Positions 60,119 through 61,663 of a stretch of 64,000 bases of DNA are shown one piece after another. Location of the stretch: positions 1 to 64,000 of the IMG/VR virus record IMGVR_UViG_3300045836_000108; one strand, written 5' to 3'. Under the pieces are notes generated by a model. That model was not told the origin of the DNA and searched no databases. It worked only from the letters and a program-made list of their open reading frames with translations. Every line of letters starts with the position of its first letter. The first letter of the stretch is position 1. The translations under genes and the position numbers were made by a program. This DNA comes from a virus (taxonomy: Duplodnaviria; Heunggongvirae; Uroviricota; Caudoviricetes).

Positions 60119-61663
60119 ATGGCCAGCCAGCCCGACTACACCTGCCGCCAGTGCGACAAGGACGTCAAGATCAACCAGGCCCTCAACAAGGTCCCCAAGC
60201 ACTACCGGCCCGGCACCAAAACCGTCTGCCCCGGCTCCAACGTGAGCCCGTCGCTGGTCTTCTCCGGCCTCAAGGACCGCAGCCAGGAGGAGAAGACCGT
60301 GAAGGGCGACCGCACCGCATACCAGGCCCTCGGCACCATCAAGGTCCACACCGAAGAGTGCCGGTCCGTCCGGACCATGCTGGCCAAGGCCAAGGCCGAG
60401 GGCCGTCCGGACGGCGTTCCGGCGTCCGGTTGGGTCTCCCACAACCGGGAGTTCATCCTGGAGGACATCCAGCGGAAGCCACAGCGGGACTGCGCCGAGT
60501 GCCGTCGTATCCGGCAGGCCCGTGCGGCCGTGGAGGCCGCTAACCGGCCGCAGATGACCGACCGGGAGCGGCTGGTCAACAACTTGATGGCGCAGCAGTT
60601 CGTGAAGGAATGGGGCGCGCTGTCGCCGCAGCTCCGGGCGTACGTCATTGCGGATTACATCGAGGCGGAGGACGCGGACCCGCAGGGTGCCGACGCCGGT
60701 CTGTACCGCCGCAACATCGGGACCGGGAACCTGGCGGAGTACGCGGCTGTGCTTAAGGCGCAGGCTCTGCGCAACGCTCCCAAGCCGGTAGAGGAGCCGG
60801 TGAAGGTGGCTGTGGCTGTGGTCACGGACGGCCACGGAATGTCCCGCGTCCACAACGCAGACTGCCGGGACGTCGCCCGTGAGGTCAACAAGGCTGGGAA
60901 CGGTCCGGCGTACGTACAGGAGTTCGCCAACCGGACGGAGCTGGAGCAGGACTGGTGGGGGGACGTCGCTGGCGACGAGTTTGAGGAGGGGACGCCCGAG
61001 TGGAAGCGGTCCGTTCGGATGTGCGCTGACGCGGCAATGGAATACCTGCCGTGCTGTACCCTTCCGGAACTTCCGGACTTTACTCCGCTTAGCGGTCCCA
61101 GTATGGTTGAAGCGGCACCGAGCAACCAACCGGAGGAGACTGCAATGGCTGCCGCCACCAAGAACACCCGGACCGCCAAGAAGGCGGCCCCCAAGCCCAG
61201 GGCCCAGGCCAAGCCTGAGCCGGAGCCCATGGGCTTCCTCAGCAAGACCGGCATTGCGCACACCGAGGAGTGCGCGACCGTCAAGGCCAACAACGCCGGG
61301 AAGCTGCACTACCCCATGGAGGGCGAGCAGATGGACCTCTCGGTCCTGATCGCCCACATCGAGGCCGACGACCCCGAGGACCGCTGGAAGGAGTGCGGTC
61401 TGTGCGCCAGGATCCGCCGGAACAAGGCCGCGCAGGACGAGTCCGCGACGACTCCGTCGAAGCCGGAGCTGCGGTTCGAGATCGTGTCCAAGGTCCTGGA
61501 CAAGCACGCCGTGTACCTCAGGGGATCCCGCAAGCTGGCCGGGTACGTCGAGAAGGCGCCGGACCTGGGCGGCTGGGCGTTTTACCCGTCCGGCAAGCAG
61601 CCGTCCGAGGACGACGTCCGGCCGTCCAAGGAGGAGGCTGGCGCGGCGCTGGTCGCCGCGTAG
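60119..61663 (+). CDS. Multi-repeat Cys/His-motif protein (514 aa) containing an in-frame embedded promoter module
   Basis: Three H-[TN]-x-x-C...C-x-x-C units (HTEECRSV..CAECRRI; HNADCRDV; HTEECATV..CGLCARI); module copy at 61064-61106 with in-frame ATG 61145. Confidence 0.55.
   Translation: MASQPDYTCRQCDKDVKINQALNKVPKHYRPGTKTVCPGSNVSPSLVFSGLKDRSQEEKTVKGDRTAYQALGTIKVHTEECRSVRTMLAKAKAEGRPDGVPASGWVSHNREFILEDIQRKPQRDCAECRRIRQARAAVEAANRPQMTDRERLVNNLMAQQFVKEWGALSPQLRAYVIADYIEAEDADPQGADAGLYRRNIGTGNLAEYAAVLKAQALRNAPKPVEEPVKVAVAVVTDGHGMSRVHNADCRDVAREVNKAGNGPAYVQEFANRTELEQDWWGDVAGDEFEEGTPEWKRSVRMCADAAMEYLPCCTLPELPDFTPLSGPSMVEAAPSNQPEETAMAAATKNTRTAKKAAPKPRAQAKPEPEPMGFLSKTGIAHTEECATVKANNAGKLHYPMEGEQMDLSVLIAHIEADDPEDRWKECGLCARIRRNKAAQDESATTPSKPELRFEIVSKVLDKHAVYLRGSRKLAGYVEKAPDLGGWAFYPSGKQPSEDDVRPSKEEAGAALVAA
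61064..61106 (+). promoter_or_regulatory. Intragenic copy of the hairpin + promoter module inside gene 60119..61663
   Basis: CCGGAACTTCCGG hairpin, ACTTTACTCCGCTTAG, 17-nt spacer, TATGGT, then GGAGGAG and in-frame ATG 61145. Confidence 0.45.

Follow-up and report, generated by a model that had tools for sequence, protein, structure and literature searches.

A predicted intergenic promoter-terminator module lies in frame within a 514-aa ORF of an uncultured phage and probably marks a gene fusion

Results

Organization of the locus

The window analysed here, a stretch of 64,000 nucleotides, comes from an uncultured, siphovirus-like phage with a genome of approximately 102 kb and 63% GC. One of its ORFs encodes a protein of 514 aa, the architecture of which was established from domain-wise matches in a HMMER search of 1.84 billion representatives. 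The features of the locus were as follows, with residue numbers (res) referring to the 514-aa protein.

60021..60051, + strand: full-size predicted terminator hairpin 5' of the 514-aa gene, with an 11+2 bp GC-rich stem (-27.6 kcal/mol) that abuts TTTAC
60052..60118, + strand: bona fide promoter of the 514-aa gene, as predicted (TTTACT-17-TAGGAT), with leader and Shine-Dalgarno GGAGGAGA
60119..61663, + strand: 514-aa ORF, the putative fused gene, a mosaic of units
res 1-49: Zn-ribbon-like N-terminus
60286..60301, + strand: in-frame GGAGGAGAAGACC-GTG (res 61) between the Zn-ribbon-like N-terminus and unit A, of the form found at real starts here
res ~75-150: unit A, HTEEC...CAEC
res ~150-225: helical domain
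60790..60808, + strand: in-frame AGAGGAG-N3-GTG-AAG-GTG (res 228 and 230) at the boundary between the helical domain and domain B
60800..61078, + strand (res 228-320): domain B, RVH.A.C.DV...GTPEW...LPCC.LP, the final folded unit 5' of the embedded module
61063..61077, + strand: remnant hairpin TCCGGA-ACT-TCCGGA, translated within LPELPD
61064..61144, + strand (res 316-342): linker of 27 codons, apparently module-derived, ELPDFTPLSGPSMVEAAPSNQPEETA
61079..61107, + strand: embedded predicted promoter, supported by matrix scores, with -35 TTTACT (61079-61084), a 17-nt spacer and -10 TATGGT (61102-61107) followed by TG
61132..61147, + strand: embedded Shine-Dalgarno GGAGGAGA (61132-61139), 5-nt spacer CTGCA and in-frame ATG (61145, Met343)
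61145..61663, + strand: nested 172-aa ORF (Lys/Ala-rich N-terminus, unit C and C-terminal tail), the presumed former downstream cassette
between the linker and unit C: Lys/Ala-rich stretch
res ~365-436: unit C, HTEEC...CGLC, with a tail after it
61681..61717, + strand: intact predicted terminator hairpin (-24.2 kcal/mol) and T-tract 3' of the stop of the fused gene, followed by CTTTTCTTTG

The 514-aa gene differed from that of a 98.5%-identical strain at 14 synonymous and 4 non-synonymous positions, a pattern which identifies the ORF as truly coding. No in-frame stop was present for 1137 nt 5' of ATG 61145, the codon that an earlier note on this sequence had correctly placed in frame with the 514-aa ORF; the nested protein, given there as 173 aa, has 172. 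HTEEC...CxxC units, which the same note had reported from both halves of the protein, were evident in the translation as well as by comparison. AlphaFold2 pLDDT values exceeded 90 for residues 150-320 and were below 50 for the linker (res 316-342), which is therefore predicted to be disordered.

The part of the gene upstream of the linker itself combined at least four units, and two more in-frame Shine-Dalgarno and GTG sites lay at boundaries between them. The first of these (60286..60301) may possibly represent an older fusion scar; its GC3 was coding-like, no promoter remnant accompanied it and its occurrence was compatible with chance. At the second, GTG230 aligned to Met1 of stand-alone domain-B proteins. 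In-frame Shine-Dalgarno sequences followed by a start were thus present at three loci of the gene compared with approximately 0.5 expected, a modest excess that, with five such sites in one acidic control protein, is suggestive only.

The intergenic module

The consensus of the module repeated in this genome was a GC-hairpin-GGGC-TTTAC-N3-GCTTAG-N9-TAGGCT, then a Shine-Dalgarno sequence and a start codon, and eight copies were located between 55 and 62 kb of the window. TTTAC-N17-21-TANNNT occurred 14 times as compared with 0.85 expected, and 10 of the 13 TTTAC-NNN-G[CT]TTA sites in the window constituted the core training set. The distance from TTTAC to ATG was 65-68 nt in most intergenic copies and 65-75 nt over all ten. 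The likeness of the module promoter to sigma-70 promoters is one of sequence alone (TTTACA/T-17-TAGGCT/TATGGT), and only one module copy was called by a strict E. coli-type sigma-70 scan, which is too centred on E. coli for these promoters. No family in Rfam matched the module.

The module at 60052, which precedes the 514-aa gene, has its ATG 67 nt from TTTAC and scored 53.9 bits when inside the training set and 35.1 bits when left out. In the frame of the 514-aa gene it is free of stops as far 5' as position 60008, where the preceding gene has its TGA, such that gene 59030-60010 and the 514-aa gene share a frame and are parted solely by the TGA of the former. Similarly, no stop in the frame of the downstream gene was found in modules 33057 and 58567. 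The notion that in-frame stops had to be mutated away from a module was rejected, the consensus 66-nt-spaced copy at 58567 being already open.

A module copy within the 514-aa ORF

A 55-nt weight matrix was built from 11 intergenic copies with the embedded copy left out. The embedded copy scored 28.8 bits with this matrix (32.8 bits with a 37-nt matrix) whereas the best non-module site on both strands of the 64-kb window (i.e., 128 kb) scored -2.4 bits against a background mean of -65 (sd 13.5). The resemblance thus exceeds chance, and the segment at 61063-61147, in frame within ORF 60119-61663 and translated as ...LPCCTLPELPDFTPLSGPSMVEAAPSNQPEETAMAAA, is by these scores a genuine copy of the repeated intergenic module of this phage. 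The hairpin, promoter, Shine-Dalgarno sequence and ATG that the earlier note had described in this ORF were all present in frame, as judged by inspection and matrix score alike. That a coding stretch came to resemble the module by chance is a general possibility with nothing further in its favour, and its probability appears negligible in view of the difference between these scores, the right order and spacing of hairpin, -35, -10, Shine-Dalgarno sequence and ATG, and the aberrant codon composition described below.

The embedded copy has a -35 of the form TTTAC(T/A), a 17-nt spacer (CCGCTTAGCGGTCCCAG, which includes GCTTAGCG) bearing GCTTAG, and a -10 of the form TAnnnT followed by T(T)G. A GGAGGAGA-type Shine-Dalgarno sequence then stands approximately 5 nt from a start codon 66 nt from TTTAC, within the 65-68 nt typical of the module. 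The 17 nt previously placed between GCTTAG and TATGGT are the hexamer-to-hexamer spacer; the gap between GCTTAG and TATGGT is 9 nt. The start region matched the real start region at 59014-59032 at 18 of 20 positions, and the spacing of GGAGA-N5-ATG equalled that at most real starts of the genome. Core promoter positions, spacing and Shine-Dalgarno-N5-ATG were thus all intact in the embedded copy; the terminator stem was reduced.

The reduced stem comprised 6 bp (-8.1 kcal/mol) as opposed to the GC-rich hairpin of 11-16 bp (-23 to -30 kcal/mol) that adjoins the -35 in five well-formed intergenic copies, and its first arm overlapped by 4 bases the codons of an 'LP' (61061-61066) belonging to LPCC.LP, with which domain B ends in conserved form. 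Also absent was the CGTAAGCC box approximately 8 nt 3' of the -10, in place of which stood GAAGCGGCACC, and TTTAC was preceded by GGAC as opposed to GGGC in the consensus. The location within an ORF, rather than in an intergenic position after a stop codon, is the anomaly studied here. The earlier description of the segment as reproducing every element of the module is thus accurate for the promoter, Shine-Dalgarno sequence and ATG but not for the hairpin or the CGTAAGCC box. The box was also missing from most modules of two related phages (L009 and L010) and so is not family-wide; interpretation of its absence as a sign of promoter decay was rejected on this account. The embedded copy may nevertheless be weak if the CGTAAGCC box and GGGC positions matter for promoter activity. 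Identity of the embedded promoter with modules of the same two related phages was 26-27/33 and with modules of its own genome 19-24/33.

The linker had the lowest GC3 within the gene (0.52, compared with 0.89 for the whole gene and 0.95 for the nested 172-aa part), and at least 13 of its 27 codons ended in A or T (P = 2e-6). By this measure its codon composition is non-coding-like, for which recent fusion or promoter constraint could equally account.

Reproducibility of the junction

The junction was 100% identical over 221 bp in five further metagenome assemblies (two JGI and three Logan) from different runs or samples, one of which was 100% identical and four 98.5% identical to the window. 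These findings indicate that the junction is not an assembly error. An artefact in which a stop between separate genes was erased by assembly or consensus error might be suspected of a metagenomic sequence, the more so as long chance open frames are frequent in high-GC DNA and many shadow ORFs occur here; given the recurrence of the junction in those assemblies, the continuous frame and the 14:4 ratio of synonymous to non-synonymous differences upstream, this explanation is highly improbable.

All carriers of the junction were at least 98.5% identical (i.e., nearly clonal) and showed zero substitutions at 60915-61450, so that selection on the embedded signals cannot be gauged from this locus. 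Among the relatives found, none was close enough to reveal the state before fusion. The sole strain-level indel seen, of 274 bp, had no modules at its ends.

Relatives of the parts

Each of the fused parts (i.e., domain B, and unit C with its tail) was found as an independent gene elsewhere. Domain B is a widespread phage protein of approximately 90 aa that normally stands alone; such proteins (P0010, P0012, P0013 and others) were 80-113 aa long and ended 2-25 residues past LPC[C/V]. Unit C and its tail were matched by a stand-alone protein of 150 aa (P0030), and unit C had homologues at the C-termini of P0003 and of two cassettes of the window, 56590-57183 and 57296-57751. The comparison of the two halves with homologous cassettes that had been called for earlier thus found its matches on the side of unit C in paralogous cassettes, P0030 and P0003.

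Relatives contained the same units in other combinations. In P0006, the positional counterpart of the 514-aa protein in an L009-type phage, and in P0003 the helical domain led straight into unit C, with neither domain B nor the module between them, which leaves the order of events ambiguous. In P0004, a helical-like domain was followed by domain B, the same order as in the 514-aa gene. With the module common to related arrays, these arrangements mark the array, on comparative grounds, as a hot spot of domain shuffling.

Five other phages (L006, L008, L011, L012 and L017) had in-frame ribosome sites (GAGGAGA or AAGGAGA-N5-ATG or GTG) immediately 3' of domain B or unit A. Gene-wide GC3 was 0.93-0.97 in the first four, a promoter remnant was seen in none of the five, and the linkers at these junctions were otherwise without conservation. 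A strict peptide footprint of such sites, EE[TNKSRIM]xM, occurred three times in 11,022 residues (50 hits), in each case at such a junction. These observations suggest that nested initiation has been maintained in the relatives.

Against 50,697 phage records, neither DNA searches of the region (near and distant modes) nor a tblastn search of the 514-aa protein gave a match; the genome is without a close relative among these records and its terminase was less than 40% identical to any. A scan of IMG/VR with the full 514-aa protein likewise gave no match. A word-indexed protein search recovered only a 99% twin and, with a B|wHTH alignment, nothing beyond its own inputs, and a metagenome scan added only L020 and L019, the latter from the contig of L009. 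Sequence searches of Pfam, PHROGs, NCBIfam and PDB yielded no functional assignment for the cassette proteins, which matched nothing at the Pfam curated cut-off and no PHROG of assigned function, and the 514-aa protein had no NCBIfam match. The sole significant family match was of domain B to phrog_12580 (unknown function). From their position one might guess that the His/Cys-containing domains are early host-takeover or regulatory proteins.

Discussion

That formerly separate genes have fused in frame has good support from the homology of the embedded segment to the module, its non-coding composition, the stand-alone occurrence of domain B, the P0030 homologue of unit C and its tail, and the existence of modules that are free of stops. 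The suggestion in the earlier note of two former cassettes joined together is supported by all five of these points, and needs amendment in that the upstream half is a composite rather than one cassette. Loss of a stop or terminator, which the note had also proposed, agrees with the reduced terminator stem; a small deletion fits better than simple loss of a stop.

On balance we regard as probable a history in which cassettes were fused in frame, the module was captured as a linker and the internal signals most likely remain active. In this history, the module would consist of a terminator hairpin, the U-rich tail of which overlaps a sigma-70-like promoter, and a Shine-Dalgarno sequence and start approximately 66 nt on. 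Two adjacent early-gene cassettes, each with its own promoter, would have become fused in frame with capture of the module inside the ORF, the upstream cassette, which ended in domain B, having lost its last few codons, its stop and most of its terminator stem, most simply through a small deletion. Because a 66-nt-spaced module has no stop in the frame of the downstream gene, such a loss would suffice to join the two ORFs. The crippled terminator would then permit read-through from the promoter at 60052 and synthesis of the 514-aa fusion protein, while the embedded promoter and GGAGGAGA-N5-ATG would give rise to a shorter mRNA, to initiation at Met343 or to both, and hence to a free 172-aa protein. 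That the embedded signals still drive this free product is, from their preservation, most likely. An internal promoter with a C-terminal isoform, offered in the earlier note as an alternative to fusion, would be a consequence of it and not a rival, and is made plausible by the intact signals and by the in-frame ribosome sites conserved in relatives.

The fusion could also be real and the embedded promoter, Shine-Dalgarno sequence and ATG no more than young relics of no consequence, the 514-aa protein alone being of importance and the signals due to decay. The unameliorated linker (expected after a recent event), the near clonality of the carriers, the degraded hairpin, the absent CGTAAGCC box and the lack of sequence variation that might reveal constraint all accord with this explanation. 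It does not readily account for the retention of core promoter positions, spacing and Shine-Dalgarno-N5-ATG together with specific loss of the terminator, nor for the persistence in five other phages of in-frame Shine-Dalgarno-N5-start sites within ameliorated sequence and divergent flanks, which points to selection. Moreover, a strong Shine-Dalgarno sequence and ATG on translated mRNA normally support some initiation, selected or not. We therefore consider inert relics unlikely, if still a serious contender.

A different order of events, in which an older gene with the helical domain and unit C already linked received in frame a mobile unit of Shine-Dalgarno-GTG, domain B and module by recombination between module or ribosome-site repeats, would explain the structure of P0006 and P0003 and the bracketing of domain B by the module on one side and, on the other, by a Shine-Dalgarno sequence and GTG that aligns with the stand-alone Met1. 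The closer identity of the embedded module to modules of relatives than to those of its own genome likewise hints at import, and cassettes of the PeSL type (promoter-early stem-loop cassettes of T4-type phages) move through recombination between repeated promoter-terminator motifs (PMC2839356). Adjacency of a helical-like domain and domain B, however, also occurs in P0004, insertion here and deletion in the relatives look the same without a phylogeny of the array, and the 274 bp strain-level indel lacked module boundaries. Such an insertion thus seems quite improbable, and fusion of adjacent cassettes remains the history that we prefer.

A broader and more tentative proposal, which we hold to be possible but doubtful, is that stop-less junctions in this high-GC phage group are a maintained design that yields a fusion as well as one or more free downstream proteins, with ribosome sites from between genes, and in this case an entire promoter module, kept in frame where domains meet and with modules driving the shuffling of domains as well as of whole genes. 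The window may then be the youngest example, with its promoter kept, and the junctions of L006, L008, L011, L012 and L017 older ones in which selection would have preserved only the Shine-Dalgarno-N5-start.

The apparent fusion scar is unusually legible in that terminator remnant, promoter, leader, ribosome site and start can all be read as a protein linker, and it offers a direct view of how phage multi-domain proteins may be put together from small cassettes, each expressed on its own. The neighbouring pair formed by gene 59030-60010 and the 514-aa gene, one TGA apart across an open module, illustrates how small the fusion step would be. Should the embedded promoter and start be active, a single locus would supply tethered and free forms of the same domain; the in-frame ribosome sites found repeatedly at domain junctions in the five other phages would in that case suggest a general expression strategy, and one that gene callers hide by reporting a single ORF for two or more products. 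Practical consequences are limited for now.

Nested in-frame initiation is familiar in phages from T7 gene 4A/4B, lambda S107/S105, lambda C/Nu3 and phiX174 A/A*, where an internal Shine-Dalgarno sequence and in-frame start give a C-terminal protein beside the full-length one, generally from one mRNA. In the present case, by contrast, a complete predicted promoter lies 5' of the internal start, and the parts are domains that are separate in other phages. A further parallel is the c gene of phiC31, the isoforms of which arise through nested promoters and starts. In that phage of high-GC bacteria, as is proposed here, one ORF specifies a full-length protein and C-terminal forms that start at internal in-frame sites, and the 514-aa ORF contains an internal in-frame start with its own ribosome-binding site (GGAGGAGA-N5-ATG, Met343). 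The phiC31 protein, however, is a characterised repressor with demonstrated isoforms whereas the present, unrelated proteins are known as predicted translations, and the internal signals here are a recognisable copy of the standard intergenic module of the genome, which betrays their probable origin in a fusion.

The module most resembles the PeSLs (Arbiol et al. 2010, PMC2839356; Comeau et al. 2014, PMC4122927). As in those elements, a stem-loop terminator and sigma-70-like promoter are repeated between genes, with the 3' end forming the Shine-Dalgarno sequence and start of the next gene, a likeness that extends to intergenic copies with well-formed hairpins and not to the remnant stem of the embedded copy; the copies are concentrated, moreover, among small genes that lack a known function, in a region that is plastic and associated with modular shuffling. 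The position of the stem-loop 5' of the -35 box corresponds to one of five PeSL classes. The relationship is one of analogy and not membership, there being no sequence relationship to T4-type PeSLs and the consensus being distinct and belonging to a 63% GC siphovirus-like genome. In addition, PeSL promoter activity was demonstrated by lacZ fusions (PMC2839356) whereas the promoter and terminator here are predictions, shuffling in the present array affects protein domains within ORFs, and translation of a complete module has not been described for PeSLs. A DNA polymerase gene that some phages carry as one fused gene is elsewhere split into two cistrons, and PeSL-like sequences have been noted between these (PMC2839356). 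Seen thus, the present array would carry the range of PeSL-like promoter-terminator cassettes beyond T4-type myoviruses, into a high-GC phage lineage unrelated to them.

Translation starts are associated with conserved repeats also in the Cluster K mycobacteriophages, namely SAS and ESAS. SAS are approximately 13 bp long, with the ribosome-binding site included, and we know of no report of one that is translated inside an ORF. These start-site repeats, some with an inverted repeat next to them, accompany many non-structural genes of actinobacteriophages and are of unknown function (Pope et al. 2011, PMC3203893); unlike the module, they are not promoter-terminator composites, and they have no sequence similarity to it. 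Finally, the separate occurrence elsewhere of domain B and a unit-C protein that are joined here recalls 'Rosetta stone' fusions, the scars of which are usually invisible whereas here a whole predicted intergenic regulatory region has been kept in frame.

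Cassette array and intergenic module

The source phage is an uncultured tailed phage of approximately 102 kb and 63% G+C, of which the window forms a part, and encodes a terminase, a portal, a major head protein and a tape measure. Contigs of 102,398 bp representing this phage were present in two JGI metagenomes. No DNA match was found among 50,697 deposited phage genomes, so the phage is without a close relative there, and its terminase was less than 40% identical to any from these genomes. An array of small genes occupies approximately 55–62 kb of the window on the plus strand, each gene preceded by the same composite module. 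None of the array genes matched Pfam at the curated cut-off or a PHROG with an assigned function, and the protein of 514 aa encoded at 60119–61663 had no match in NCBIfam.

Elements of the intergenic module, 5' to 3'
Hairpin (5' part): GC-rich, 11–16 bp in well-formed copies
Promoter: GGGC-TTTAC(T/A)-N2-GCTTAG-N9-TAGGCT, in which a 17-nt spacer separates hexamers resembling a -35 and a -10
Box after the -10: TTG-N5-CGTAAGCC, in most copies
Ribosome site: GGAGGAGA-N5-ATG, 65–68 nt past TTTAC in most copies

The hairpin's U-rich tail doubles as the -35 region, making terminator and promoter a single compact unit. The promoter pattern was strongly over-represented (14 matches as opposed to 0.85 expected), and modules of the same layout were noted in three related phages (L008, L009 and L010). 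The GCTTAG of the spacer and a CGTAAGC approximately 8 nt past the -10 form an inverted repeat around the -10 and likely start site (e.g., 57236–57241 and 57264–57270), which could serve a dimeric regulator as its operator; this repeat is absent from most L009 modules and from the copy embedded in the 514-aa gene.

In sequence layout, the array is reminiscent of the PeSLs of T4-type phages. These composite terminator/promoter motifs end in the Shine-Dalgarno and start of the next gene, concentrate upstream of ORFans in plastic regions and mediate modular shuffling; PeSL-like sequences also lie between the two cistrons of a polymerase gene which other phages carry in fused form (PMC2839356, PMC4122927). 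The present module is nevertheless not a member of the PeSL family, from which it differs in sequence, host type and genome lineage. The SAS/ESAS repeats of Cluster K mycobacteriophages are likewise linked to gene starts but are not promoter-terminator composites (PMC3203893).

A module copy within the 514-aa gene

The occurrence of a hairpin, promoter and ribosome site inside the 514-aa ORF, claimed in an earlier note, was borne out. Positions 61063–61147 show the order and spacing of the module, lie wholly within the ORF and are read in frame as LPELPDFTPLSGPSMVEAAPSNQPEETAM. When a weight matrix was built from the other copies, 11 intergenic ones with the embedded one excluded (background mean -65, sd 13.5), the embedded module scored 28.8 bits whereas the best non-module site on either strand of the window scored -2.4. 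The distance from TTTAC to ATG is 66 nt, and the Shine-Dalgarno/start region was identical at 18 of 20 positions to the genuine one at 59014–59032. Five more assemblies, two from JGI and three from Logan, contained the 221-bp junction without a single base difference; overall, one of them was 100% and four were 98.5% identical to the window. That the module is an assembly artefact or a chance resemblance is scarcely credible. The 14 synonymous and 4 non-synonymous changes relative to the 98.5% strain indicate that the ORF is a translated gene.

The same note held that every element of the module was reproduced. This was so for the core promoter at every position, for the spacing and for the Shine-Dalgarno and ATG but not for the CGTAAGCC box, which is absent, or for the full hairpin, which is reduced to TCCGGA-ACT-TCCGGA (-8.1 kcal/mol as opposed to -23 to -30 in intact copies); the nested ORF is of 172 rather than 173 aa. 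The reduction is specific to the terminator, which if intact would block the fused gene. Positions 61079–61111 were identical at 26–27 of 33 positions to L009 and L010 modules, compared with 19–24 of 33 for modules of the same genome, and the copy matches the TATGGT, box-less variant found there. Decay from the local consensus was rejected as an explanation because in L009 and L010 true intergenic modules are of this variant. These identities suggest either that the downstream cassette was imported or that the active modules of the genome diverged in concert from the embedded copy.

Evidence for a probable gene fusion

Searched exhaustively with HMMER against 1.84 billion representatives, the 514-aa protein was resolved into an N-terminal unit, unit A, a helical domain, domain B, a linker, and unit C with a tail.

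Features of the 514-aa gene and its surroundings (plus strand)
59030–60010: gene in the same frame, with TGA at 60008
60052: module and promoter
60119–61663: 514-aa gene
60286–60301: in-frame Shine-Dalgarno and GTG (residue 61), between the N-terminal unit and unit A
60790–60808: in-frame Shine-Dalgarno and GTG (residue 228/230), at the helical-domain/domain-B boundary, aligned with Met1 of stand-alone B proteins
61063–61147: embedded module
61681–61717: intact terminator

GC3 was 0.89 for the 514-aa gene and 0.88–0.95 for all cassette genes but fell to 0.52, the gene minimum, in codons 316–342 (P = 2e-6 for at least 13 A/T-ending codons in 27), which retain intergenic composition. Domain B (residues 228–320; RVH.A.C.DV...GTPEW...LPCC.LP) belongs to a family of approximately 45 clusters, many of whose members are stand-alone proteins of 80–113 aa that start at the GTG230 position and stop 2–25 residues past LPC[C/V]. 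The embedded module begins 7 residues past LPCC, which is the expected stop position for a domain-B protein. The Met that opens residues 343–514 has a perfect ribosome site. Unit C (AHTEEC...ECGLC), which lies within these residues, shows homology to the C-terminal ends of two cassette genes, 56590–57183 and 57296–57751 (E ~1e-7), to a stand-alone protein of 150 aa (P0030) and to the C-terminus of the homologue P0003. AF2 pLDDT was above 90 for residues 150–320 and below 50 through the linker, and the module is accordingly modelled as a disordered tether.

Together with the bona fide modules at 33057 and 58567, the module at 60052 is free of stops in the frame of the downstream gene (n=3), and the TGA at 60008 is all that separates gene 59030–60010 from the 514-aa gene. 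A single mutation at this TGA would yield a second embedded module, so that a pre-fusion state one mutation away adjoins the fused one.

Origin of the 514-aa gene by fusion is thus very probable. The low GC3 and the separate existence of the partners agree with the earlier proposal that two cassettes were joined; the upstream half, however, is itself composite rather than a single cassette. Residues 1–49 match the N-terminus of the homologue P0033, and relatives combine each of the other units (unit A, helical domain, domain B) differently. P0002 joins domain B, unit A and a C-like unit; a 206-aa protein of L009 joins the N-terminal part of the 197-aa cassette to the C-terminal domain of the 326-aa and 95-aa cassettes; and P0003 joins the N-terminal part of the 326-aa neighbour to the helical domain and unit C. 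Insertion of a cassette into an older gene of the last kind, running from helical domain to unit C, is an improbable route of origin. In the favored fusion route, a small deletion or equivalent recombination would have removed the last codons and stop of a B-ending gene with most of the terminator stem, so that this gene continued in frame across the open module into the following cassette. Transcription from promoter 60052 would then extend to the intact terminator at 61681–61717, the transcripts encoding the 514-aa protein, and a 172-aa protein would be made additionally from the embedded promoter and/or ribosome site. The GTG sites at residues 61 and 228/230 are no more than suggestive and may mark earlier fusions or further nested starts, enrichment of in-frame Shine-Dalgarno and start pairs being modest (3 loci as opposed to ~0.5 expected, with 5 in one acidic control protein).

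Possible activity of the embedded signals

In-frame GAGGAGA or AAGGAGA-N5-ATG/GTG was noted at domain junctions in five other uncultured phages, directly after domain B in L006 (8971–9017) and in L011, L012 and L017 (past LPCC/LPCT), and after a unit-A-like domain in L008 (~322–345). The next domain is often an ArsR-like winged helix. No promoter remnant was seen at these five junctions. Gene-wide GC3 was 0.93–0.97 in the four measured (L006, L008, L011 and L012), and linker residues flanking the ribosome-site motif were unconserved in the three B/wHTH genes. The strict peptide footprint EE[TNKSRIM]xM occurred 3 times in 11,022 residues of 50 matches, always at such junctions. Where linkers have otherwise drifted freely and been ameliorated, a ribosome site that persists at its exact spacing is best accounted for by selection acting on internal initiation, and this phage group may maintain in-frame ribosome sites where domains join. 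By analogy, Met343 is probably used as a start in the window, where a promoter is present too. That the embedded signals are a neutral scar of the fusion is unlikely; some internal expression from them is slightly more likely than not, and the dual-expression interpretation is plausible. The nested in-frame start resembles classical nested phage genes, and the 514-aa gene would illustrate clearly how domains accrue by way of a regulatory module that is translated.

Other features of the region

Additional features of the window and of related contigs
44184–44698 (-): tRNA-Pro, tRNA-Ala and one tRNA-like gene (odd 2-nt anticodon call), clustered at 44.2–44.7 kb
56333–56408 (-): tRNA-Met gene amid the plus-strand array
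61710–61760: degenerate module-like stretch just past the terminator of the 514-aa gene, GGGGGC-TTTTCTTTGCTGAG...TAAGCCT, followed by a second hairpin
61775: weak module upstream of the gene for a signal-peptide protein (61849–62331)
L001/L002 (98.5%-identical sister strain), 15309–18315: TROVE (Ro60-like) protein of 543 aa adjoining an RNA ligase, ~5–8 kb past the window end

The TROVE and RNA ligase pair was also noted on a contig of L009, and finding a Ro60 homologue in a phage prompts one to ask whether a Y-RNA-like gene accompanies it. The sister strain lacks 274 bp comprising most of a 100-aa ORF at 55702–56004 (55698–55970 in the window, 5853–5854 in L001/L002); this deletion begins just past the Shine-Dalgarno AAGGAGA of the ORF, and modules are not at its ends. 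In a second replaced segment, positions 53453–53502 of the window correspond to 322 bp in L001.
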